This document shows positions 5,461-19,187 of a DNA stretch of 26,015 bases, in pieces. This DNA is from a virus. The position numbers and the translations under genes were made by a program. The stretch lies in UHGV virus genome UHGV-0203602; one strand, given 5' to 3'. The notes under the pieces were generated by a model. The model had not been told where the DNA came from and did no database searches. It was given only the letters and a program-made list of their open reading frames with translations. How positions within the stretch are numbered: position 1 is the stretch's first letter; each line of letters begins with the position of its first letter.

Positions 5461-5475
5461 TTAACCCTCCAAGAT

Positions 5476-5520
5476 CAAAAAAAAATAAAACACCTACCGC
5501 CCATAGAATCGGGCGGTAGG
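5476..5520 (-). terminator. Intrinsic terminator
   Basis: Inverted repeat cctaccgccc / gggcggtagg with an 8-nt loop; on the minus strand the hairpin is followed by TGTTTTATTTTTTTT. Confidence 0.7.
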
Positions 5521-5529
5521 AGACTATTC
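5512..5529. repeat. 18-bp exact repeat GGCGGTAGGAGACTATTC, copy A (overlaps the terminator arm)
   Basis: Identical 18-mer also at 23375-23392. Confidence 0.8.
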
Positions 5530-5584
5530 TGTAATTGAAAATCAAGGACAGTTAGTGATTTTCGGAAGGTTTTGATAGAGTATT

Positions 5585-5959
5585 TTATTCGGTTAATTCT
5601 CCACACAACTCAACGTCGATACCAAACATCATTCCCACTTCTTGAAGTTTGTTCGCCAGTAAGTGACGATGACAAAACTTACCTGCGGGACAGTAACACA
5701 TCAAAACCAAGTCATCGTGTCTGAGTAACGACACTAGAACTTCGGCGTCGATATCTAACAGTCGTTCGAGTTTGTACAAATACTTTATCGTGTACTCACG
5801 TTCAGCGACAGCGTCCTGGGCAGAAGATTTATACGCCATTAGGAAATCCCAGTCGGGGGCGAGTTCCTTTCGCCCTGACTTCACAGTGATATCCACTGCG
5901 TGAAATCCTTTCTGCTTAGCTAACCGCCACTTAGCGAGTTGTAGCGTCCAGATACGCAT
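5585..5959 (-). CDS. DUF488/DUF4326-like protein (124 aa) with conserved C-x-C...C-H-R-H motif
   Basis: N-terminus MRIWTLQ... and C-terminal LVLMCYCPAGKFCHRHLLANKL resemble the DUF488 pattern (...LLCxExxPxxCHRxLxAxxL) as I recall it; TAATG coupling to the upstream gene. Confidence 0.5.
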   Translation of the reverse strand: MRIWTLQLAKWRLAKQKGFHAVDITVKSGRKELAPDWDFLMAYKSSAQDAVAEREYTIKYLYKLERLLDIDAEVLVSLLRHDDLVLMCYCPAGKFCHRHLLANKLQEVGMMFGIDVELCGELTE

Positions 5960-6156
5960 TAGGAGCGAGTCTGTGATTCAGCCATCAACGCACAACTTTT
6001 TACAGCTTGTGCATGAAGCTCTGTACCGGGTGTATAATCCTTTATACAGTCCTGGTACATTTCACGTTTCGTTTCTAAAGTACGAGAGTCGTACTCGGCA
6101 TTCGCTAAAGCCCCTGCAATAACGATAAAAACTACAATCGGCAACCAAATTTTCAT
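5959..6156 (-). CDS. Small secreted/periplasmic protein (65 aa) with N-terminal signal peptide
   Basis: MKIWLPIVVFIVIAGALANA-EYD: hydrophobic core and AxA cleavage motif; GGAGGG RBS; ATGA overlap with the upstream gene. Confidence 0.65.
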   Translation of the reverse strand: MKIWLPIVVFIVIAGALANAEYDSRTLETKREMYQDCIKDYTPGTELHAQAVKSCALMAESQTRS

Positions 6157-6365
6157 TTCCCTCCCCCCATTCGATTAGCGTATTCCGTACACGCCATTAC
6201 TAATTCAGCGTAACGTGGGCTATCTACAGTAGTGCCTGACATACATTCACGATAAAGGGAGTCTCTACGTGATTCGTCAGACGTCTTAACGTAGAACATC
6301 AACATCGCTACAATCAACGCAGTTGAAACGATTGCTGAAATGATATATCCGTCATTTATTTTCAT
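6153..6365 (-). CDS. Small membrane protein (70 aa), single N-terminal transmembrane helix
   Basis: YIISAIVSTALIVAMLMFYV hydrophobic segment followed by a charged tail. Confidence 0.6.
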   Translation of the reverse strand: MKINDGYIISAIVSTALIVAMLMFYVKTSDESRRDSLYRECMSGTTVDSPRYAELVMACTEYANRMGGGK

Positions 6366-6882
6366 CTATAAAGCACCAAGGTTCTGGATAAAAGTCTGTA
6401 AGTAAATCAACGTAAAAACTATGTAAATTTGATAGCTTTATAACACACCCTAACAAATCCTGATCAGTGCGATGATAAATCACCACAGAAGTTTCTGATA
6501 ATCGTTTAACATGTATAAACCCATCATCTTTTATTCTGCGATACAGCATCTTAAAATCGATTTCACCTACCGTATCAGGTTCACCTACGACGGAAAACCG
6601 AATATGTGGCCGTTCGCTACCTTGGGTTGATAAAAATTCCTCTGTCGTCATTGCATAAACCTGCCCTAAAAAGGATAGGTGGGGAATTACTTCTTTACGC
6701 AACTCGCTGCTCGAAATCTTAGCAAAAACCTGGCGTTCCGTTAAGCGCATTAACTCAGCTAATCTCCCCAAGTCTTTGTTATATCCCAAAAAAAGAGCCA
6801 CTTTCTCGTCATGCGTAATAGGCGGCCATTCGACCGCCTTTGCACGACGTTGCTTAAACCAACCCACAAGTCGTGCTATCAC
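6352..6882 (-). CDS. Hypothetical protein (176 aa)
   Basis: GTG start at 6880-6882 with GAGGA 9 nt upstream; no recognisable motif. Confidence 0.65.
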   Translation of the reverse strand: MIARLVGWFKQRRAKAVEWPPITHDEKVALFLGYNKDLGRLAELMRLTERQVFAKISSSELRKEVIPHLSFLGQVYAMTTEEFLSTQGSERPHIRFSVVGEPDTVGEIDFKMLYRRIKDDGFIHVKRLSETSVVIYHRTDQDLLGCVIKLSNLHSFYVDLLTDFYPEPWCFIDENK

Positions 6883-6884
6883 GT

Positions 6885-7577
6885 TTAGTAATCCTCAATC
6901 TGGTTTACTACACTTTGAATACGTGTTGCGACTTCATTAGTGTCCAGGTCAGTTTCGTCTACCTTATCCACGAGTTTCTGTACCTTACGTACATGCGGCT
7001 CAGTGATATCAAAACGACCACGATCGGCTAACAGCAACGTTACCATATCCTTACGCGTAACCATCAGTTCTTCTTCAGGTAAGTGTAAGGATTTGTCTAA
7101 CAGTCCAGAATGCATGAAGTTTTCCAGTAAGCGTTCTTCTCCCTGGTCGAAATCATAGCGTTCATTAGGTGCAGCAACGAAAGCATAGCCGAAGTAGTTT
7201 TCTTCTGTCTCACGTAGCGACTTGATGATTTTGTCACCGTGTTGACAGAAATCACTTAACGTGTAGTCGTCAAGCGTGGCCACGACGGTTTCTGCTTGCA
7301 CGCCGTTATCTGTTTCGTACAGATGCGCAACCCACAGCTTCCAGTTACGTGGCTCGTCAAACAAACCACCGATTAACATATCAGTCGCTGCCATGCGCAT
7401 ACGCGGTGACGTTGTAAACTGGAAACCACGGCCCGCGTACGGGCCGATAGGACGGATAGAGCTACCTACGAAAGTAATGCGGTTTAGCGCATTTTCAGCA
7501 ATGGTGTGCGCAGTACGGTTAGCAGCTGCTTTCGGGTTATACTTTTTGTTACGAGGTTTCTTTTGTTTGGTAGCCAT
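6885..7577 (-). CDS. Hypothetical protein (230 aa), basic N-terminus
   Basis: ATG start; TAATG overlap with the upstream gene; N-terminus MATKQKKPRNKKYNPK. Confidence 0.7.
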   Translation of the reverse strand: MATKQKKPRNKKYNPKAAANRTAHTIAENALNRITFVGSSIRPIGPYAGRGFQFTTSPRMRMAATDMLIGGLFDEPRNWKLWVAHLYETDNGVQAETVVATLDDYTLSDFCQHGDKIIKSLRETEENYFGYAFVAAPNERYDFDQGEERLLENFMHSGLLDKSLHLPEEELMVTRKDMVTLLLADRGRFDITEPHVRKVQKLVDKVDETDLDTNEVATRIQSVVNQIEDY

Positions 7578-8059
7578 TATTTATTCTCAACTAATACTGT
7601 GTGAAATGCTTTATAAAGAGCTTGACGTGTCTCAATTAATGCTGGTCGATTAATCAAGCACATGTATCCGATTTGCCAAGCCCAGTAAGACGTGTCGTTG
7701 GTGTTTAATCCATAATCAGGTTCAGGATATAGTAACTCCGAATCCACTTCTGGTAAATGAAGACGACACAAACTAAGATTCCAAAAGTTGGCTAAGTCAC
7801 ATTTTGCAAGTTCGCTCATTACCTGCATTGGTATCTGATTCCCAAGAGCATCCGTTGCGAAGATAATACGAAGATACCCTGGGGACTTAGAATAGATACC
7901 GTGTCCTTCACAAGACCAAATCGAAACAACATGTTGATGTTCGTTAATCAGTTTACAAATATCACGAACGCCTTTCTCAATGTCACCGTTTTTGGTTGCA
8001 GACTGAGCACGCTCTTTAAACGACGCTAGTCTTTCTGCGTCAACGCAAAAGCGAATCAT
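7577..8059 (-). CDS. Hypothetical protein (160 aa)
   Basis: ATGA overlap with the upstream gene; no recognisable motif. Confidence 0.7.
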   Translation of the reverse strand: MIRFCVDAERLASFKERAQSATKNGDIEKGVRDICKLINEHQHVVSIWSCEGHGIYSKSPGYLRIIFATDALGNQIPMQVMSELAKCDLANFWNLSLCRLHLPEVDSELLYPEPDYGLNTNDTSYWAWQIGYMCLINRPALIETRQALYKAFHTVLVENK

Positions 8060-8520
8060 GTTGGATTCTTCCCTAAGATTATCTCGCGCATTTCCAGATA
8101 GGTGTCAAACGGAACCACGGTGTCTTTATAACGGAGCGTTACGTAAGTTACGAAGTGCTGGGGTGCCAGGAAAGCACGTTTTGGCGACCCGTCGTGGTTG
8201 TAATACTGTTTCGGACGATAATTGTTGAAAATGTCTTCACGTGGGAACAACGATTTCTGAATAACCACTTCCCAACGGTGCGGCGTTTCCAAAAGCGCAA
8301 TCCGGTTCAGTATGTCATCTACCCAACGTTCCTTGTTTTCAGTTAATACGAAACTGATGTGATGATGCTGAACTTCTGCTAGTGCGATTTCGGGTTCTTT
8401 ATCCAGTTTCAACAATACCGCAAACAATGGACGATAATCAGAATCGTACAAGTCACGGAAAGCGGTTTTCTCACGCTGTTTAAACAACTCAACAATTTCT
8501 TTAGATTCAAAACATTTCAT
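8056..8520 (-). CDS. Hypothetical protein (154 aa)
   Basis: ATG preceded by AGGAG (spacer 8 nt). Confidence 0.75.
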   Translation of the reverse strand: MKCFESKEIVELFKQREKTAFRDLYDSDYRPLFAVLLKLDKEPEIALAEVQHHHISFVLTENKERWVDDILNRIALLETPHRWEVVIQKSLFPREDIFNNYRPKQYYNHDGSPKRAFLAPQHFVTYVTLRYKDTVVPFDTYLEMREIILGKNPT

Positions 8521-8565
8521 TTTCTTTTCTCCTAATCATTAAAATAGCCGCAGTTGTAAAAAAGA

Positions 8566-9087
8566 CTACGGGTTAAAAGGTAGCGGTTTGCAATCCCGCT
8601 TTTTCAACTCCTCTACTAACTCAGGTAATGTACACCATCGTTTAAATTGGTTGTTAGCTTTAAAGTGGCTGAGAATCTCCTCAACGCGCTCAATAGACCA
8701 CTTCCCTTTCCCTACGTTGTCTAGATCCTTACGTACCGAGAGCGTCTCAATGGTAAACGCTATCTCTGAGCTGTCCGAATGGTCGTACAGCAGTCTTACC
8801 GGTGTGGCTTGATGTAGCGTAACACGCCAACCTGACTCCTTAGCCCAGTAGACATCCTTAATACGTCCACTAACATCAATTATAGAGCTAATATAAGTCC
8901 ACTCTCCTTCTAGCTTGTTCTCTTCAGCAGTTAATGCTTCTTCTAATCGTAGAGAATTAGGGGACGGAATCCACCAACCGTACTTACCGTAATAATCGTC
9001 TATTACAGTGATACCTTCGTAATACAAATATTGTGTTTTTGTATTAACGAATATTTCATCGCCAATTAAAACCGCATTTATTTTCAT
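8566..9087 (-). CDS. Hypothetical protein (173 aa), translationally coupled to the HslV-like gene
   Basis: ATGA overlap with the upstream HslV-like CDS; no recognisable motif. Confidence 0.7.
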   Translation of the reverse strand: MKINAVLIGDEIFVNTKTQYLYYEGITVIDDYYGKYGWWIPSPNSLRLEEALTAEENKLEGEWTYISSIIDVSGRIKDVYWAKESGWRVTLHQATPVRLLYDHSDSSEIAFTIETLSVRKDLDNVGKGKWSIERVEEILSHFKANNQFKRWCTLPELVEELKKRDCKPLPFNP

Positions 9088-9572
9088 CGTAAATGCTTCC
9101 TGTAAAACAAGTCATAGGTGGTCGAGCTAGATGTATCAATAGACCCTACCAATGGTATAATTTTCTTTTCTGATATTCCTGTTGCCCAAGCTGCCCGCGC
9201 AAAGCCGCCACCAGAGCCCGTCGTCCAGACCGCATTTTTATTTATTACAAACGTTTTAAACTTATCTGCTACTAATCCAAGCCAATAGGTTTCTCTGGCC
9301 GTAAAAATGACGATTTGATCGAATATTTGCTCTTTTTCGAAAAGTTCCACAAGCACCGGTTCAACTTTCTTACGTTTATCCTCGTCTAAATATTTTTCTA
9401 TAGTAACGGTCATCGACGTTTTCCAAAACTCAGTGTCCAGTACACGTTCCCCAGTGTAGAAAACAAACTTGTTTTTGTGTTTATGTAGTTTGGGCAATTC
9501 TTTAACTGTTCCACTATATTCCACTAAACGATCGGCTAAAATGTAATCCTTTGTTACCAATACCGTTGTCAT
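9084..9572 (-). CDS. HslV / proteasome beta-subunit-like Ntn-hydrolase (peptidase T1-like), 162 aa
   Basis: Start taken as ATG at 9570-9572 (GAGGT 5 nt upstream) rather than the GTG one codon earlier. Protein begins M-TTVLV (Thr becomes N-terminal after Met removal, cf. HslV TTIVSV) and carries GSGGGFARAAW at residues about 120-130 (cf. HslV GSGGPYAQAAARAL); length is similar to HslV (176 aa). Confidence 0.55.
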   Translation of the reverse strand: MTTVLVTKDYILADRLVEYSGTVKELPKLHKHKNKFVFYTGERVLDTEFWKTSMTVTIEKYLDEDKRKKVEPVLVELFEKEQIFDQIVIFTARETYWLGLVADKFKTFVINKNAVWTTGSGGGFARAAWATGISEKKIIPLVGSIDTSSSTTYDLFYRKHLR

Positions 9573-9583
9573 CACACACCTCG

Positions 9584-9623
9584 AAGAAAAATAAAAGTAC
9601 CCTCTCTCCTAGCGGAGAGAGGG
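9584..9623 (-). terminator. Intrinsic terminator
   Basis: Stem ccctctctcc / ggagagaggg with a 4-nt loop; T-run on the minus strand immediately after (GGTACTTTTATTTTTC). Confidence 0.7.
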
Positions 9624-9630
9624 GCACTGC

Positions 9631-9900
9631 TTAAAACTTACGACTGCTACCGTAGCAACCACGACCGGCTGTCGTTTTCGCAGCGGTGGCCGGTGCTAAC
9701 GCAACCATCGTTCCATCTGTTTCGATGATGTGTAAGTTACCTGCACGAATCAAACCTTTGAAAGTAATCTTCACGCCTTTACGCAGGCTTTTCACATCAA
9801 AACCTTCAAGCTTGAGTGTTTTAACTTTTTCAGGTTTACCTTCTTCGTGATAAGAAAGAACATTACCTGAACGTTTCTCAACAATGTAAATCTTAGCCAT
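9631..9900 (-). CDS. Hypothetical small basic protein (89 aa)
   Basis: ATG with GGAG 8 nt upstream; first gene downstream of the candidate promoter/operator. Confidence 0.7.
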   Translation of the reverse strand: MAKIYIVEKRSGNVLSYHEEGKPEKVKTLKLEGFDVKSLRKGVKITFKGLIRAGNLHIIETDGTMVALAPATAAKTTAGRGCYGSSRKF

Positions 9901-9945: not shown

Positions 9946-9974
9946 AATATATCTTAAATTTTTTAGACCGTTAA
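9946..9974 (-). promoter_or_regulatory. Candidate sigma70-type promoter (-35 TTAACG, 17-bp spacer, -10 TATATT)
   Basis: Minus-strand reading: TTAACG (9969-9974), 17 nt, TATATT (9946-9951); AT-rich spacer. Confidence 0.3.
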
Positions 9975-10282
9975 CTGGACAAAGCAATGTTAACCGACTT
10001 ACCAGGCAGCGGGAAATGCTGAAGTTCTATCGATAGAAGTTTCCTGTCAATTGTCAGTATTTCATCAACGTTGGGCGTAAGACGGAATATATCGCGCGGT
10101 AACGTGAAAGGCACGTTCGTCGAGCAGTTATTTAACCGTAACTGTCCCTGAGAATAATCAATCTCTACCACCCTCGCAATTACCCAACGATCGTGAATCT
10201 CGCCGCCTAGAGGTGCAGTTAGTGCCCGTTGCAAGCGCTGTATATTGGGCTCATCAGTATTAGTGCGGTTCTGGCTCGACAT
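9971..10282 (-). CDS. Hypothetical protein (104 aa)
   Basis: Start moved to the internal ATG at 10280-10282 (protein begins MSSQNRTNTD). The track's longer N-terminal extension is Cys-rich and overlaps the upstream gene out of frame. Confidence 0.5.
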   Translation of the reverse strand: MSSQNRTNTDEPNIQRLQRALTAPLGGEIHDRWVIARVVEIDYSQGQLRLNNCSTNVPFTLPRDIFRLTPNVDEILTIDRKLLSIELQHFPLPGKSVNIALSS

Positions 10283-10577
10283 AAATTTCCCCAAACACGT
10301 ATGCGGTTTCTGCTTCATTTGTCGGTTTAGCAACACACCACATCCATTCTTTAGTTTCAGGGTTTTGCCAGGACAACAAATGAACACCGTCACAAATTTC
10401 AGAGGTATCAACCTCTGGGTGGTATAGCATAAATTCGTTTTCGTTGTCATCCGTTACAACAAACTGCCCTTCTTCTACTCGTTGAAACTCAGCAACGCCA
10501 ACTAAAGTTAGCCCGCCTGTGTCATCTAAAGCTACTAGAGTTTTTGGCAAATCACGGTGAATAGCACTTAACCACAT
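10260..10577 (-). CDS. Hypothetical acidic protein (105 aa)
   Basis: ATG at 10575-10577 with GAGGAA 7 nt upstream (the track's start is a TTG five codons earlier). Confidence 0.6.
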   Translation of the reverse strand: MWLSAIHRDLPKTLVALDDTGGLTLVGVAEFQRVEEGQFVVTDDNENEFMLYHPEVDTSEICDGVHLLSWQNPETKEWMWCVAKPTNEAETAYVFGEIYVEPEPH

Positions 10578-10630
10578 CAGATTGTTCCTCAATTAATTTT
10601 GTTTACTTGTGCATAACTACGGCTATACGC

Positions 10631-10669
10631 GTAAAAATAAATACACCCTCTCTCCAAACGGAGAGAGGG
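10631..10669 (-). terminator. Intrinsic terminator
   Basis: Stem ccctctctcc / ggagagaggg, identical to the stem at 9600-9623 but with a different loop; T-run on the minus strand (GTGTATTTATTTTTAC). Confidence 0.7.
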
Positions 10670-11457: not shown

Positions 11458-12231
11458 TTAAAAGATAAAGTGGCCGGTTAATGGTTCTACCTCAACTCCA
11501 CCCATAGACGGTGGGGCTGTGTATGGAAACGTGAGGCGAACAGTTGCGCCTTTCAGATAAGCAATACGGAAATACGTGGTTAGTAGTGCGTTTCCGTAAG
11601 TGCAATCGTTATAGAAAAAGCCTTCGGTGGCAAACGTCTTTTCGTTGATTTTCGAATAGACTAAGATACCTTCAACCTTACCGTCTTTACGACAACACAA
11701 CCCTTCTGCTGCGCCTACGGCTAACAACCCTAAACAATGCGTGTCCAGGTTGACATTAACAACCTTAGGAATCGTAAACGTCTCTTCTAACGTTAGGGAT
11801 TCAACGTCGAACACGTCAGGTAAGTCAGTGCGCACTTCTGGCTTTTCAGTAATCGTAAGGTCATAATCGATTGACGTCGGTTGCATACCTAAAAACGTCA
11901 TTAACTGATCACGACGTTTTAGGTCATTAGCAGGGTAGGTGACATCAAACATCTTCACGTTTAACAGACGTTTGAGTTGGGCGAAATTGATGTTCTTCTT
12001 CGCAAACACAACGATTGCGGACATGTAGAATATCTTACCGTCTGCACGCCCTGAAAAGATGCCCTGTAACTGGTTAGTGTTCGAAAGGATGATAAAGGTG
12101 GGGTCTTCAGATTCCCGAATGATTTCCTTTTCCATTAACCCTTTGCGTACACGGGTTAACGAAACCATTTTCCCATCGACACCAATCGCCAAATGGTCAT
12201 TACGATAATCGTGGATATCCACTATACGCAT
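11458..12231 (-). CDS. Hypothetical protein (257 aa), translationally coupled to the Dam methyltransferase gene
   Basis: TAATG overlap with dam; no recognisable motif. Confidence 0.75.
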   Translation of the reverse strand: MRIVDIHDYRNDHLAIGVDGKMVSLTRVRKGLMEKEIIRESEDPTFIILSNTNQLQGIFSGRADGKIFYMSAIVVFAKKNINFAQLKRLLNVKMFDVTYPANDLKRRDQLMTFLGMQPTSIDYDLTITEKPEVRTDLPDVFDVESLTLEETFTIPKVVNVNLDTHCLGLLAVGAAEGLCCRKDGKVEGILVYSKINEKTFATEGFFYNDCTYGNALLTTYFRIAYLKGATVRLTFPYTAPPSMGGVEVEPLTGHFIF

Positions 12232-13046
12232 TAGAGCACTCCTAACAATTCCGTTACCGTTTTACGAGCAGCACCTGACGCACCCATGTATCGCCCTACT
12301 TCTACAGAACGCCATTCGAACCCGTAATAAATCTCACGCGTTAGTAACGTATCTGCATTGGACAACACAACGCTATTCCCTTTCTCAACCTGCTTAAACA
12401 GCGCTCTGGCGAGTTCCCGATGGTCGGCCTGGGAAAACTCCTTCCGATGGTATTGCGCGTGTTTAGCGGTCTCTGAGAGCGGTATATAAGGTGGGTCTGC
12501 GTAAATCACGCTGTCATCCGGTGTACGCTCTAAAACTGTTCGGAAATCCTCACAAACAATTTCTAAGTATTCCGGTTCTTGACAACGTTTAGCCCAACCA
12601 CGAATCTCTTCTAACGGGTAATACACACCGTTAGGATAGCGACCAAACGGAACGTTAAAACCACCGCTGCCGTTGTAACGACACATCCCGTTAAAACCGT
12701 GACGCATTAAGTACAGAAACATTGCAGCACGATCTAACGGAGCCATATCCGTTTCACGATTAAACAACTCACGGCGTTCCATATACTTAATACAATCGTT
12801 ACCGTCTTCGAATAGCGGTTTCGACTTTAAGATAAGTTCTTCAGGTTGGTCTTTCGCCACATTCAGCAACTGGATTAAGTCAGGGTTAGAGTCAGCAAGA
12901 ATGTAACGTTTATAACGTGTGTTCAAAAACACTGACCCTGCGCCAACAAACGGTTCAACGAAAGTGGTACGTTCAGGTAAGACTTGTAGTAAGGTGTCGA
13001 TAATCCGCGATTTGCCACCCATCCACTTTATAATTGGTTTATGCAT
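12231..13046 (-). CDS. dam: DNA adenine (N6) methyltransferase, Dam family
   Basis: IKWMGGKSR, VEPFVGAGSVFLN and the catalytic DPPY (YADPPYIPLS) are collinear with E. coli Dam (KWAGGKYPLL, VEPFVGAGSVFLNT, DPPY). Confidence 0.9.
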   Translation of the reverse strand: MHKPIIKWMGGKSRIIDTLLQVLPERTTFVEPFVGAGSVFLNTRYKRYILADSNPDLIQLLNVAKDQPEELILKSKPLFEDGNDCIKYMERRELFNRETDMAPLDRAAMFLYLMRHGFNGMCRYNGSGGFNVPFGRYPNGVYYPLEEIRGWAKRCQEPEYLEIVCEDFRTVLERTPDDSVIYADPPYIPLSETAKHAQYHRKEFSQADHRELARALFKQVEKGNSVVLSNADTLLTREIYYGFEWRSVEVGRYMGASGAARKTVTELLGVL

Positions 13047-14025
13047 TAATTCCGCCTTGTAACGATGACATTTCGTCGCCTAGCACTAACTCGACGCGGT
13101 TTTTCCGACGCTCCCAACTGACGACATCGTCGTCGCGCACTAAAACAAATTCGTACTCGTAGGGACGGAATTTAAACAAATCTACAGCCAGGTGTCTAAA
13201 TGCTGGGTTGTTATTGTAACACCCTATTTCTAATGGTGCTGCTGTTGTCGATGCAATCTGTAAAGCACGGTACAACAACGCACGCCCAATCCCACGGCCC
13301 CGGTGTGACTCACTTACCGCAATGGCTTTTAGTTCGCACTCGCTAAGATTGCGTGATTTAACTTGCACCACACCCACAATGTCGTTACCGTCCATCCAAA
13401 CGTAAGTGTAGTGATTGACGTGACGCACTAACTCCACCAGCGTTTCAACTTGCGGCATTATTTGTCGAGAACGCGTCACAGGGTCAGCATTGATGTTTTC
13501 AACAACGCTAGTGCCAAACAACGTCATGAGCTGTTCACGTTGTGCTCTGGTTAAGTCTTTATAGAAGTCGCCAGAGACGTTCTTCACGTTCGTCGGTAAA
13601 GTGACATCCAGTAGCTTACGCGTACCTAAACGATATGCTGTGTGGGTATGTCTAAACCCTAAATCGTTAAACTCAGCAATTTCTTCCACACCTCTGGCAA
13701 TTCGGTTAAGGTACGTAAACCCAGTATAGTCGAGTACCAGTAGAAGACTCAGTTTGTTCAAACACCCAGGTACAATTTCGTGCATATACAAGCAGTGTAA
13801 CGTTGGGTCACCGTAAATGTGTTTTGTGATGATAAACCCTTGGATTGTTTTTCCTTTTTGTAAAGAGAACGTATTCAGCTCAGTATTGCACAGTGCTTCA
13901 CGAATCGCCGCACCGTTAGGCCCCGTTAAACATGCCTGAAGCTGAGGATTGCGAATATCTCTACGGGTTAAGCGTCCTACTGTTAAATCAGAAGAGGTTC
14001 TTTCTATCGTTTTACGATATACCAT
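13039..14025 (-). CDS. GNAT-family N-acetyltransferase domain protein (328 aa; C-terminal GNAT, N-terminal about 200 aa unassigned)
   Basis: C-terminal IAVSESHRGRGIGRALLYRAL (GNAT acetyl-CoA-binding motif A, R-x-x-G-x-G); strong RBS AAGGAG; 8-nt overlap with the dam start. Confidence 0.7.
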   Translation of the reverse strand: MVYRKTIERTSSDLTVGRLTRRDIRNPQLQACLTGPNGAAIREALCNTELNTFSLQKGKTIQGFIITKHIYGDPTLHCLYMHEIVPGCLNKLSLLLVLDYTGFTYLNRIARGVEEIAEFNDLGFRHTHTAYRLGTRKLLDVTLPTNVKNVSGDFYKDLTRAQREQLMTLFGTSVVENINADPVTRSRQIMPQVETLVELVRHVNHYTYVWMDGNDIVGVVQVKSRNLSECELKAIAVSESHRGRGIGRALLYRALQIASTTAAPLEIGCYNNNPAFRHLAVDLFKFRPYEYEFVLVRDDDVVSWERRKNRVELVLGDEMSSLQGGINA

Positions 14026-15293: not shown

Positions 15294-15917
15294 TTAATTC
15301 TCTAAAATACAAGCAACGATTTCAGCCGCTTTTAAACGGTAATCGTCGTTTTGCTTCACGGGTAATAAATGGTGCAGACAACCACCTTCAGTGAGGATGT
15401 GGTGGGCGAAGCGGTAGTGGTCACGTAACGCTTCCCAGCTTTGGTTATCTTTTAAATACTTAACGGTAAGGACTTCATCGTCCCAATTCTTACCTTGTTC
15501 TTCTACCCGTTTCTTAAAGCGTGCTACTGCGCCGTCGTAATCCACATCTGTCCAAACGTACAAATCTGGTGCGTGGAAATGACGCGTTAGCTTACGTCGG
15601 AAAACTTCGTCTTTACCGTCGACGCCCTGGTAAACGACTGTAGAGGGACAGAACCTGTCGAAAATAACAACATCGTAATCGTCAACAACATGGTCTAACG
15701 TGTGAAGGAAATCGTCGCACATCGCTTCGGCAATTTTTGCTTTTGCTGCGGACTGAATGACTAAACTGCGTGCGCGGATACCCGCTTCGGTCTCCGTCGT
15801 AGGGTGATTACGAATGCAGACCTTTAACCCCGCAGATTCCAGCATACCTTTTACTATTTTGCACAACGTCGATTTCCCAGAAAAGTCAGGGCCATCAATA
15901 GACACTGTCTTAAGCAT
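15294..15917 (-). CDS. Thymidylate kinase-like (dTMP/dNMP kinase), about 207 aa
   Basis: P-loop GPDFSGKST near the N-terminus; DRFCPSTVVYQG matches the Tmk DRxxxSxxAYQG region. Start placed at ATG 15915-15917 (MLKTVSIDGPDFSGKST) rather than the track's GTG seven codons upstream. Confidence 0.75.
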   Translation of the reverse strand: MLKTVSIDGPDFSGKSTLCKIVKGMLESAGLKVCIRNHPTTETEAGIRARSLVIQSAAKAKIAEAMCDDFLHTLDHVVDDYDVVIFDRFCPSTVVYQGVDGKDEVFRRKLTRHFHAPDLYVWTDVDYDGAVARFKKRVEEQGKNWDDEVLTVKYLKDNQSWEALRDHYRFAHHILTEGGCLHHLLPVKQNDDYRLKAAEIVACILEN

Positions 15918-15949
15918 TATCGTTTTACCTTTACGCACAAAAATTTAAA

Positions 15950-17586: not shown

Positions 17587-18054
17587 TTAGATTTCCTTTA
17601 TCATTTCCCTGCATTCGGTACGGAATCCCATTTTCTCATACAAGGAGATAGCTTTAACGTTGTTGTCTAACACATCCAGACTCATCCAACCACAACCTTT
17701 GGACTTTCCGTATTCACGGACTTTGTCCATAAGCGCACGCCCTACCCCTTGAGAGCGTGCTTCAGGAATCACATAGTAATTCCCGATGTAAACGAACGTG
17801 TCTTTTGAGCAAGAACCCAATGAGAACGTCATAAAGCCCAGAAGCTGTTCGTTGTCACCCACCGCACACGCACAGAGATAATCTTGAGGCCAAATCTCTT
17901 CTAAGCGTTCGATGGGGTTAAACGTGTCACGTCCAGTTAACTGACTAATACGCACTTTCTCTTCTGCGAACAACATGTTGTGCAGTTTGAGTACCTGGTC
18001 GCCGTATAACTTTCCGTATTTACTGTCGGGTTTGAGAATAATAGTAATACGCAT
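17587..18054 (-). CDS. GNAT-family N-acetyltransferase (155 aa)
   Basis: VIPEARSQGVGRALMDKV (motif A) and ISLYEKMGF (motif B); TAATG overlap with the upstream gene. Confidence 0.85.
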   Translation of the reverse strand: MRITIILKPDSKYGKLYGDQVLKLHNMLFAEEKVRISQLTGRDTFNPIERLEEIWPQDYLCACAVGDNEQLLGFMTFSLGSCSKDTFVYIGNYYVIPEARSQGVGRALMDKVREYGKSKGCGWMSLDVLDNNVKAISLYEKMGFRTECREMIKEI

Positions 18055-19187
18055 TATTTAACCTCAATCAGCGACAACCTGCACCATTCCAGTAAGCCTT
18101 CCGCAACACGCACTAACGAGGTAGTAAACGCATCTTCTAAACGCAGTGCGTTTTTATACCGAACGGTAGCGTCACGTAATTCACGACCGTCTAACGATTT
18201 CAACTCTTTTTTCATTCGCTGAATTTCATCGTAAATACCGGTATAACCAACACTACGACGCTTCGTACCACGCTGACGTAAAGCACGGATAATCTTTTCA
18301 ACGGCATCAAGAGCTGAACCGATTTCGTGTAAGTTCAGAGATTTGATTGTGTGGCCAAAATCACCGTCACGGGCAATCGCCCACTCAATCTTACCGTTGT
18401 TGTGTTCAACGACCACCACGTTACCTGGCCACGGATACGCTTTCACTGTTTTAAACGGATCGATAATACCGAACAACCCTGCACTACGTTTAATCGCCCA
18501 GTTCGTTGAGCGGCCTACTTTCTCCAAGCCACTCTCAGTAACTTTCTTGCTCTTACCGATAATGGTGCGCGTTTTAACGGTATACTCGTTGACCATCGCA
18601 TCCATTGCGTTCAGGTTCTTACTGAACTCAATACACGCTTTTACGTTAGGTTTGTCTTCTAAACAAACTTTGGTCGTCCAGCTTCCCGTGTCGCAGTCAA
18701 CCGGTTTTAAGGTGTCTTTGTCACCGATTAAACTTAGACGAGCATTTAACTTTTGCAGTTTGCGCTCTAAGGTCGTCGCTTTAGACGTCGCTTCTTTTAA
18801 TTCCTTAATGACTTCTTTACCCGCAACTTCGGCAAAATCCACAAAACGTAAAGCAAGTTGTTTGGAATGTTTACCTGCGAAGTTCGCTGACGCTTTTGCA
18901 CCTGCACTGGCAGCACGTCCTGCTACCCGACTTACGCCACGAACCGCACGTCCGGTGAGTCGCGCCGCCGCTTTGCCTATCCCTTTATCAGGTTCCGTGT
19001 CTGACAAAAACTGCGCACGATGCATCATGGCCGCAGACTCTGACGCAACAACCACATCATCCAAAAGCCAACGTTTACGGATAGCAACGATAGCCGGATA
19101 ATTATCTTTTACTCCAATGGATTCTAACGCTACGAGTCGGTCGTAATCGTCACAAAGCACTTCTAAGTCGCTATCTAACGTTGACAT
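18054..19187 (-). CDS. Hypothetical protein (377 aa) with a low-complexity R/A/G-rich segment
   Basis: Long ORF; weak RBS; no recognisable motif. Confidence 0.75.
   Translation of the reverse strand: MSTLDSDLEVLCDDYDRLVALESIGVKDNYPAIVAIRKRWLLDDVVVASESAAMMHRAQFLSDTEPDKGIGKAAARLTGRAVRGVSRVAGRAASAGAKASANFAGKHSKQLALRFVDFAEVAGKEVIKELKEATSKATTLERKLQKLNARLSLIGDKDTLKPVDCDTGSWTTKVCLEDKPNVKACIEFSKNLNAMDAMVNEYTVKTRTIIGKSKKVTESGLEKVGRSTNWAIKRSAGLFGIIDPFKTVKAYPWPGNVVVVEHNNGKIEWAIARDGDFGHTIKSLNLHEIGSALDAVEKIIRALRQRGTKRRSVGYTGIYDEIQRMKKELKSLDGRELRDATVRYKNALRLEDAFTTSLVRVAEGLLEWCRLSLIEVK

Follow-up and report, generated by a model that had tools for sequence, protein, structure and literature searches.

Phages of the phiKZ/SPN3US type encode hundreds of genes without annotation. 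The nearest known counterpart of the locus studied here is a block of SPN3US genes, gp113–gp116 and gp120 (SPN3US_0113–0116 and 0120), all annotated as hypothetical proteins and located between a Dam-like methyltransferase region and the tail genes. A related arrangement occurs in the Erwinia phages Machina and Huxley (gp125–gp129) and Derbicus (gp123–gp129), where an HslV-like gene is followed by an overlapping homologue of the gene here called A and then by a homologue of D, with an E-type gene after D in Machina and Huxley. These three phages have no TYW3-like genes, and additionally encode an HslU-like AAA+ ATPase with S80-like protease paralogues after it. For a related HslU homologue, that of another Erwinia phage, RAY, localisation to the phage nucleus has been reported. 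Beyond phages, the relevant comparisons are bacterial HslV (HslVU/ClpQY) and TYW3/Taw3 (PF02676; 2qg3, 2drv, 1tlj), the SAM-dependent tRNA-yW N4-methyltransferase of eukaryotes and archaea. A literature search on TYW3 in phages, SPN3US gp113–gp115 and DUF488 returned no functional data.

The window (the whole 26,015-nt stretch of DNA that was analysed, UHGV virus genome UHGV-0203602) belongs to an SPN3US-like, phiKZ-type jumbo phage, and its block occupies the same position and orientation as that of SPN3US. C corresponds to gp114 (38% identity), D to gp115 (62%) and the product of a DUF488 gene to gp120 (57%); the 1-nt overlap of C and D is kept in SPN3US, and B sits at the position of gp113, as a gp114 paralogue. 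The SPN3US locus differs in lacking the HslV-like gene, A and an E-type gene, and in carrying an S80-like protease paralogue (gp117) together with gp118 and gp119 between D and the DUF488 gene. The gp117-type genes were considered as possible HslV-type genes and ruled out, as both Pfam and PHROG give Peptidase_S80, in agreement with their published status as prohead-protease paralogues. Neither the HslU-like ATPase nor the S80-like paralogues of the Erwinia phages were found in the window or its clade.

Overall, the unit is probably a mosaic of small modules arranged around a universally conserved anchor, D, and not one five-part machine. The first module would be the HslV-like threonine peptidase with A, the second B with C, and the third D with E, the biochemical roles and physical interactions of these proteins being inferred throughout.

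Organisation of the nine-gene unit

The features of the unit, in order of transcription, are as follows.

9600–9623, minus strand: terminator-like hairpin at the upstream edge, stem CCCTCTCTCC-loop-GGAGAGAGGG, then a T-rich tail
9084–9572, minus strand: HslV-like N-terminal-threonine peptidase gene (context gene)
8566–9087, minus strand: gene A, 173 aa; phrog_25529
8521–8565, minus strand: A/B spacer; putative module boundary and insertion hot spot
8056–8520, minus strand: gene B, 154 aa; probable degenerate paralogue of C without the SCxGH segment
7577–8059, minus strand: gene C, 160 aa; predicted TYW3/Taw3-like fold; SPN3US gp114 homologue
7901–7924, minus strand: codons S46-I-W-S-C-E-G-H53 of C, counterpart of the TYW3 signature
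6885–7577, minus strand: gene D, 230 aa; SPN3US gp115 homologue; phrog_6965
7533–7568, minus strand: basic N-terminal motif of D, KQKKPRNKKYNP, largely invariant across the family
6352–6882, minus strand: gene E, 176 aa, GTG start; putative divergent member of phrog_11712
6153–6365 and 5959–6156, minus strand: F70 and G65, small tandem paralogues in the same operon
5585–5959, minus strand: DUF488-N3a gene, last of the unit; SPN3US gp120 homologue
5493–5520, minus strand: terminator-like hairpin at the downstream edge, 11 pairs, 8 of them G-C, then TGTTTTATTT; precedes the tail genes

The initial annotation had described A–E as five co-directional genes joined by ATGA or TAATG overlaps or short spacers, and every one of these open reading frames was recovered at its coordinates on the minus strand. 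The HslV-like gene, which likely starts at the ATG at 9572 (MTTVLV), overlaps A by 4 nt (ATGA); B and C share an ATGA overlap and C and D a 1-nt overlap (TAATG); D and E are separated by 2 nt, with GAGGA ahead of the GTG of E. Only A and B stand apart, by a 45-nt spacer with AGGAG 9 nt 5′ of the ATG of B. The tight chain runs on past E, through overlaps of 14 nt with F70, of 4 nt between F70 and G65, and of 1 nt between G65 and the DUF488 gene, such that seven of the eight junctions measure ≤2 nt. A consensus pattern scan of the minus strand identified no convincing terminator inside the unit, in line with the initial annotation of A–E; strong minus-strand hairpins with T-tracts occurred only at 9623–9600 (5′ of the HslV-like gene) and 5520–5493 (3′ of the DUF488 gene). 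Because these two hairpins flank the HslV-like and DUF488 genes, the unit comprises nine genes as opposed to five or six. Bracketed in this way, and with such tight junctions, the nine genes are supported by their sequence as a single operon, and co-transcription and translational coupling are likewise supported for this larger unit. The stem of the upstream hairpin was found again, identical, at 10646–10669 (0 matches expected from shuffles). A scan for sigma-70 promoters was at background level (11 found, 12.4 expected), phiKZ-type promoters lying outside its scope, and the window contained no tRNA genes or Rfam families.

Comparisons with four related IMG/VR contigs, in which all nine genes are intact (70–100% amino-acid identity), gave dN/dS values of 0.00–0.34 across the unit. 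Each gene is under purifying selection (A, 0.04–0.08; B, 0.04–0.09; E, 0.22–0.34), and these values, along with the intact reading frames, indicate that these are genuine coding genes. Neighbouring genes have had different divergence histories: against one relative (L009), dS was 2.3 for the HslV-like gene and 0.3–0.5 for A, B and D, and among the close relatives divergence is far greater in the HslV-like gene, C and E than in A, B and D.

The initial annotation recognised no family for any of the five genes, which does not stand, as A–D each have a PHROG match and E could tentatively be placed in a PHROG family by profile methods. All of the families of A–D are annotated as ‘unknown function’. 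Searches of ten proteins of the unit against Pfam, NCBIfam and PADLOC yielded sub-threshold matches only, with the exception of the DUF488-N3a protein (PF22751, E = 3.9e-11); for A–E there was no Pfam family above threshold and no PADLOC match.

Gene order among relatives and the alternatives to a proposed mosaic

Conservation was examined at 20 loci, 15 of them more distant, on which the modular break-up of the unit was judged. At the DNA level, searching phage genomes with the region gave no near-identical match, and a search for distant similarity recovered the D gene alone. All four of the closest relatives keep the order HslV-like, A, B, C, D, E, and to this extent the earlier expectation of a conserved order is borne out; other genera hold subsets only. 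D is the sole universal member (20 of 20 loci). The HslV-like gene and A, without B/C, accompany D in the Machina and Derbicus groups, while tandem B/C-type paralogues accompany D without the HslV-like gene and A in the SPN3US, Asesino and Wellington groups. Across all loci, the HslV-like gene occurs eight times, invariably upstream of D and with A directly 3′ of it, overlapping or nearly abutting (8 of 8); in the eight records with D coordinates, D starts ~1.1–1.8 kb downstream of the HslV-like start. TYW3-like genes and E-type genes occur in 15 loci each, and the E-type genes track D, plus the HslU-like ATPase where present, always adjoining one of those. Even among the close relatives the A/B spacer varies, from 45 nt in the window and 49 nt in L010 to a 131-aa open reading frame in L007–L009, which overlaps B by ATGA.

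It is unlikely that the genes are unrelated accessory cargo, each acting singly in, for example, host takeover or anti-defence, with the slot upstream of D serving as a recombination hot spot. This would account for the gene content between a conserved flanking gene (89 aa, 9631–9900) and D, which varies by genus, for the whole-gene insertion or deletion at the A/B spacer, for the greater divergence of the HslV-like gene, C and E, and for the failure of A–E to match Pfam or PADLOC. Against this, the pairs HslV-like/A and B/C with D persist across genera at 17–38% protein identity with their overlaps kept, the pairing of a putatively active with a degenerate tandem paralogue suggests a heteromer, and A, B and D have very low dN/dS values. 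The smaller modules HslV-like/A and B/C/D look real, and so a description as unrelated cargo is also too strong. The initial annotation had preferred a multi-component system to unrelated cargo.

The stronger claim, that tight coupling implies one stoichiometric multi-component system, was not supported. Under this interpretation A–E and the HslV-like protein would act together, for instance as a proteasome-like machine with caps, adaptors and substrates whose ratios are set by coupling, and a single terminator-bounded unit with near-abutting genes and an order kept in four close relatives is what would be expected. However, 20 of the 35 co-directional junctions in the window are ≤5 nt, with 17 overlapping or abutting, and since junctions this tight are usual throughout the genome, four out of five within A–E and their upstream gene are not unusual. 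Furthermore, B/C-type genes and the HslV-like/A pair are nearly mutually exclusive in other genera, an unrelated gene separates A from B in three close relatives, the gene-by-gene histories differ, and no connection between proteins of the TYW3 fold and proteolysis is known. A single system is therefore a rather improbable explanation, even with the invariant, exposed, basic N-terminal tail of D, which could serve as a recognition tag. Relatives do place D and E-type genes between, and consistently near, protease-type genes (HslV-like, HslU-like and S80-like), such that the modules could be functionally tied after all.

Under the mosaic interpretation, five ‘hypothetical proteins’ become defined families with a clear pattern of co-inheritance that names the pairs: the HslV-like protein with A, B with C, and D with E. 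The locus also warns against taking translational coupling as a sign of a complex in genomes in which overlapping genes are usual.

The HslV-like/A and B/C pairs

The HslV-like gene matched phrog_23394 (E = 1.4e-9) and phrog_1040, ‘peptidase HslV family’ (E = 4.2e-7), the latter also matched by Machina gp125 (E = 4.5e-10), and had no Pfam, NCBIfam or PDB sequence match, so that its putative assignment to HslV draws on these PHROG profiles and on motifs. As in bacterial HslV, Thr would become the first residue after removal of Met and is accompanied by the Asp, Lys and Gly-Ser-Gly pattern in a protein of about 160–175 aa; across six homologues from three phage groups the invariant elements are M-T-T, A-D-R, K28 and G-S/T-G. 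Homologues in the phage collection were confined to the Machina-type and Derbicus-type groups. Unlike bacterial HslVU, the phage HslV-like protein is always found with the unrelated protein A (phrog_25529, E = 4.9e-19), which had no Pfam or PDB match and for which no bacterial counterpart was found. As the constant overlapping downstream neighbour of the HslV-like gene, A may be a partner subunit, regulator or adaptor. No AAA+ ATPase was detected among the window open reading frames scanned against Pfam, and the IMG/VR contigs of the clade, which are incomplete, were absent from the best 80 matches to a phage HslU-like profile; HslU-like ATPases are encoded in Machina, Wellington, SPAsTU and Derbicus. 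The lineage thus appears to lack an HslU-like protein, which would leave the peptidase to work by itself, together with A, or with the host's HslU. Much less probably, with A as an obligate partner, it would form a self-contained phage proteasome-like protease.

C matched phrog_7413 (E = 8.8e-20), while B matched it partially (E = 2.5e-5) and entered the C/gp113 family in an iterative HMM search, aligning with the signature-motif region deleted; direct BLASTP of B against C was not significant. The PHROG and iterative HMM results thus suggest that B and C are paralogues. None of the phrog_7413-type matches examined, from 32 phage records and 21 protein clusters, has a functional or Pfam annotation, and a single-sequence homologue search with C recovered only six close relatives. 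Against Pfam, C scored 19.3 bits with PF02676 (TYW3; E = 7.4e-4), below the gathering threshold of 27, and TYW3 matches at E ≤0.5 were obtained for 4 of 18 family members. C is predicted to have a TYW3-like fold, as its model, of moderate confidence (pLDDT 77, 13-sequence alignment), includes an N-terminal extension, an SHS2-like insert and a RAGNYA domain.

The TYW3 signature is (S/T)xSSCxGR, and yeast TYW3 requires both its Cys and its Arg (PMC5311493). Segment S46–H53 of C aligns to TLSSCSGR of 2qg3 and TtSSCSGRI of archaeal Taw3, retaining the S/T, the second Ser (S49), Cys50 and Gly52, while the first Ser is replaced by Trp and the Arg by His53; C therefore has a partial signature and B is without the whole segment. 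Phage proteins have Trp, Tyr or Leu in place of the first Ser of SSC, and all phage members that retain the motif carry His where the essential Arg would be, which makes methyltransferase activity doubtful. In the profile–profile alignment, which spans only 49 columns, Glu28 of C falls at the ‘vD’ of Taw3 (the invariant SAM-sulfonium Asp of the N-terminal extension), a position held by Asp in several paralogues; C thus keeps an acidic residue there, though not the Asp itself. The SAM-carboxylate His (end of RAGNYA strand 3) lies beyond the sequence alignments of C; the start of the next strand is His in most family members and Arg64 in C. The phage proteins further differ from TYW3/Taw3 in being shorter (150–160 aa, compared to about 190–210 aa) and in occurring as tandem paralogues, one of which is degenerate.

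To our knowledge, enterobacterial hosts have no wybutosine pathway, and the substrate of the phage TYW3-like proteins must therefore differ. B and C could pair up as a heterodimer, with one subunit functional and the other degenerate, to bind SAM or nucleic acid, and might methylate an RNA or DNA base. A specific version is put forward as a long shot: B and C would be a phage-specific SAM-dependent heterodimer of the TYW3 class, which is so far known only from the wybutosine synthesis of eukaryotes and archaea, and would during infection install or bind an undescribed base modification on bacterial or phage tRNA, or on phage DNA, for example as a shield from host anticodon nucleases or restriction, beside an HslV-like/A protease that works without its own HslU. 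B and C appear, from the model of C, to be a previously unannotated protein pair with a TYW3 fold, and this likeness gives phrog_7413, to which SPN3US gp113 and gp114 belong, its first lead at the level of fold. An active C would bring a rare class of methyltransferases into phages and hint at a nucleic-acid modification yet to be described; an inactive C would be a case of an enzyme fold turned into a binding module.

Genes D and E and the downstream edge

D matched phrog_6965 (E = 3.7e-80) and no known fold. Among 29 aligned sequences, R9, K11 and Y13 of its N-terminus are invariant, with K6 and K12 nearly so, and residues 1–10 have a mean pLDDT of 55. A search of 1.84 billion representatives with the D profile recovered 39 small proteins, one of which sits on a 1.3-kb contig; ten of the 39 were scanned and had no Pfam domain. 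PDB sequence searches with C and D, and with profiles of A, the HslV-like protein and E, gave nothing significant. E alone had no Pfam match and no PHROG match at E ≤0.01. An HMM built from ten distant phrog_11712 members returned E as the first non-member (E = 5e-4), hhalign matched E to this family over residues 4–73 (72%, E = 3.4e-5), and E aligns over its full length with the Machina gp128 family, which occupies the same place directly after D. On these alignments, E probably belongs, as a divergent member, to the Machina gp128/phrog_11712 family, whose genes come after D in related phages. Faint matches to a homeodomain (E = 0.66) and HTH_28 (E = 0.15) hint at a possible helix-turn-helix at its N-terminus, and D and E may both be nucleic-acid binding or regulatory, as a tentative proposal. 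A, D and E were also compared all-against-all by hhalign as potential cryptic HslV/proteasome paralogues or relatives of each other, and these possibilities were rejected with every score <2%.

It is very unlikely that the unit encodes components of the virion or of its assembly, for instance chaperones for building the tail or head: the genes downstream are homologous to SPN3US virion structural, tail fibre and tail proteins, a phiKZ-type internal head protein lies upstream and S80-like prohead-protease paralogues (SPN3US gp117) share the neighbourhood in relatives, but a strong terminator-like hairpin stands between the unit and the genes for the tail, the PHROG families of A–D have no structural category, gp113–gp115 are unmentioned in the SPN3US head-assembly papers checked, and the TYW3 fold and Ntn-peptidase signature point to enzymes.

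Between E and the DUF488 gene, F70 and G65 match each other (mutual phmmer, E = 0.003–0.004), and each matches SPN3US gp116 (E = 0.001–0.008). Both proteins have one N-terminal hydrophobic segment and two Cys.

Layout and borders of the nine-gene unit

As the initial annotation had described, five co-directional, tightly packed genes (A–E) follow the HslV-like gene, with coordinates, junctions and intact relatives in agreement. The tight chain runs on beyond E through two small genes (F70 and G65) to a DUF488-N3a gene:

9084-9575, minus, HslV-like gene (163 aa counted from GTG)
8566-9087, minus, gene A (173 aa)
8056-8520, minus, gene B (154 aa)
7577-8059, minus, gene C (160 aa)
6885-7577, minus, gene D (230 aa)
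6352-6882, minus, gene E (176 aa, GTG start)
6153-6365, minus, F70 (small membrane-type protein, G65 paralogue)
5959-6156, minus, G65 (small membrane-type protein, F70 paralogue)
5585-5959, minus, DUF488-N3a gene

M-T-T opens every homologue, and translation of the HslV-like gene almost certainly begins at the ATG at 9572, with a product starting MTTVLV. The HslV-like/A and B/C junctions are ATGA and the C/D junction is TAATG, with a 45-nt spacer containing AGGAG between A and B and a 2-nt spacer between D and E. Strong terminator-like hairpins on the minus strand were found only at 9623-9600 and 5520-5493, and the bracketed genes are therefore treated as one nine-gene unit, from HslV-like to DUF488. 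All nine genes have intact copies in four related IMG/VR contigs (L007–L010; with the window, the ‘window clade’) and are under purifying selection (dN/dS: D, 0–0.05; A, 0.04–0.08; B, 0.04–0.09; C, about 0.2; E, 0.22–0.34). The packing itself, from which a multi-component system had been proposed, is not special, because 20 of the window's 35 junctions between co-directional genes measure 5 nt or less.

The terminator-like hairpins at 9600-9623 and 10646-10669 (minus) have an identical 10-bp stem (CCCTCTCTCC / GGAGAGAGGG) and differing 4-nt loops; zero recurrences of this stem are expected by chance, which suggests an intergenic element that recurs in this phage. F70 and G65, paralogues in tandem (65–70 aa), both resemble SPN3US gp116, and each has a single hydrophobic segment at the N-terminal end together with two Cys.

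Gene order across related phages

Gene order was compared across 20 loci, comprising the window, its four close relatives, three metagenomic contigs and 12 named or other phages (SPN3US, SPAsTU, Asesino, phiEaH2, Wellington, ChrisDB, Caitlin, Machina, Huxley, Derbicus, Miami, and a Vibrio phage), using gene families built by iterative HMMs started from each gene. The order held in the four close relatives (HslV-like, A, B, C, D, E, F, G, DUF488); beyond the clade, the block splits. Gene D is present at 20/20 loci. The HslV-like gene and A are confined to the window clade, Machina/Huxley and Derbicus. The two genes always adjoin each other and lie upstream of D, immediately so at all of these loci but those of the window clade and Huxley. 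With the HslV-like protein as query, tblastn returned 19 records (12 distinct phages), all from Machina-type or Derbicus-type groups, with D starting about 1.1–1.8 kb past the HslV-like start in the eight records where it was located. B/C-type genes, in one or two copies, occur at 15/20 loci, none of them in the Machina and Derbicus groups, and among the compared loci only the window clade carries HslV-like/A and B/C in one operon. E-type genes (15/20 loci) lie beside D or, where a phage HslU-like AAA+ ATPase is present, immediately before it.

Synonymous divergence also differed from gene to gene (dS versus L009: HslV-like, 2.3; A, B and D, 0.3–0.5; versus L007: E, 0.05; C, 0.54). The unit is compact, with tight junctions, terminator-like hairpins at both ends and separable modules, and is probably a mosaic in which the modules are grouped about D as anchor gene, rather than a fixed five-gene unit. 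Unlinked cargo genes, a reading to be set beside both the splitting of the block and the constant pairing of the HslV-like gene with A, are unlikely. A single integrated complex of the encoded proteins, as the initial annotation favored, would fit the order kept in the close relatives; with the block splitting among the 20 loci and dS differing gene by gene, it is decidedly unlikely.

The HslV-like protein (9084-9572) has 70–73% identity to its counterparts in L007, L009 and L010 (dS up to 2.3), beside a flanking A with 92–96%, which suggests that alleles were replaced by recombination at the borders of genes; excess divergence similar to that of the HslV-like gene is also seen in C and E. In L007, L008 and L009 an additional 131-aa ORF (6666-7061; ATGA overlap with B) separates A from B; it had no PHROG or Pfam match and is absent from L010 and the window (spacer 8521-8565). 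The interval from DUF488 to the first gene of the tail region contains, in L007 (9972-10427) and L010 (9973-10425), a small Peptidase_S80-like gene, a prohead protease paralogue of the SPN3US gp117 type; in the window (5461-5584), L008 and L009 this interval is only a ~124-nt spacer with a terminator hairpin.

Protein families within the block

Sequenced phages already carry these genes under the label of hypothetical proteins; newly added here are a map of the families and modules and the assignment of phrog_7413 as TYW3-like. This family matches both C (8.8e-20) and B (2.5e-5), whose counterparts are tandem paralogues (SPN3US gp113/gp114, Asesino gp128/gp129, and Wellington gp141/gp142), and none of the family matches examined (32 phage records, 21 protein clusters) has a functional or Pfam annotation. 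The N-terminal region of C has weak, concordant matches to Pfam TYW3 (E 7.4e-4), NF003267 (E 0.059; an NCBIfam model titled ‘hypothetical protein’) and PDB 2qg3. For an independent test, 25 archaeal Taw3 loci were fetched, giving a 21-sequence alignment that hhalign matched to the 18-sequence phage family (80.5% probability, E 1.3e-5; unrelated local families, n = 12, ≤2%), pairing a phage acidic residue with the Taw3 catalytic Asp and ‘ATvWsCeGh’ with ‘TtSSCSGRI’. Over 816 ORFs, the Taw3 HMM ranked the C product first, with family members as nine of the ten best matches. Compared to published TYW3/Taw3 features (PMC5311493), C retains four motif positions (S/T, Ser, Cys and Gly), but the essential Arg is replaced by His and the Asp position is occupied by Glu, and no counterpart of the conserved Taw3 His could be placed; B lacks the whole motif segment and gp113-type paralogues have a degenerate motif. 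Because the motif is only partly kept, with Arg replaced by His and B lacking it, the family is called TYW3-like fold proteins, a distant, shortened phage branch and not TYW3 orthologues. B and C may form an active/degenerate pair binding SAM or nucleic acid.

The HslV-like protein retains the N-terminal Thr, A-D-R, Lys28 and Gly-Ser/Thr-Gly and matches the PHROG ‘peptidase HslV family’ (E 4e-7), with no Pfam or PDB match. Gene A (phrog_25529, E 4.9e-19) belongs to a narrow family (10 phage records by tblastn; window clade and Huxley only in an IMG/VR scan), and neither the protein nor the family profile matched Pfam or PDB. Its sole informative property is its constant position directly after the HslV-like gene, and A could be a partner, regulator or adaptor of the peptidase. 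In related phages an HslU-like unfoldase is added to the neighborhood, and a homologue of this ATPase in Erwinia phage RAY has been reported in the phage nucleus. The window-clade contigs, themselves incomplete, are not among the best 80 matches to the phage HslU-like profile, and the clade seems to lack this ATPase. At four loci of related jumbo phages (L003 7794-10703, L019 10159-13100, L021 10149-13090, L027 7651-10570), it is one or two S80-like serine-protease paralogues, and not an HslV-like gene, that immediately follow or flank the ATPase; the arrangement, absent from the window, hints at an unusual unfoldase-protease pairing.

Gene D (phrog_6965, E 3.7e-80; 62% identity to SPN3US gp115) belongs to a small family (81 phage records; 39 representatives among 1.84 billion proteins), and no Pfam domain was found, even in its longer relatives. 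Its predicted model (pLDDT 78, pTM 0.70) had no meaningful PDB match and in BFVD matched only uncharacterized phage proteins, including those of Wellington, Joad, Aeromonas D3 and Vibrio VP4B; the N-terminal tail (KQKKxRNKKYNP) is basic, largely invariant and of low model confidence. Alone, E had no PHROG or Pfam match. Profile comparison places it as a probable divergent member of the D-following family (Machina gp128, phrog_11712), as an HMM of distant members matches E at E 5e-4, no non-member scores better, hhalign gave 72%, and a full-length alignment is feasible. Its conserved N-terminal segment looks, weakly, like a helix-turn-helix (homeodomain, E 0.66; HTH_28, E 0.15). D and E may be nucleic-acid-binding or regulatory, or tied to the protease genes accompanying them in relatives.

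Phage affiliation and surroundings

Protein-level synteny grouped the window with the SPN3US-like jumbo phages (Seoulvirus and Erwinia jumbo phages), and no near-identical genome was found in the phage collection. Upstream context genes include:

12231-13046, minus, D12-class N6-adenine DNA methyltransferase
13039-14025, minus, GNAT acetyltransferase
15294-15938, minus, thymidylate kinase
18054-19187, minus, phiKZ-type internal head protein

Downstream genes are homologues of an SPN3US virion structural protein, tail fibre protein and tail protein; even beside such neighbors, a structural or assembly role for the block is highly improbable. Within 9971-10592 (minus), two long ORFs in different frames overlap (10260-10592, 110 aa; 9971-10450, 159 aa); their matches in SPN3US are gp110 and gp111, a pair that also overlaps, and the downstream gene probably has an internal start. 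At this locus, the deposited gp113- and gp115-type proteins of several Salmonella SPFM phages (P0037–P0042 and P0053–P0057) look scrambled or frameshifted, with many short matching stretches, and are probably assembly or annotation artefacts.
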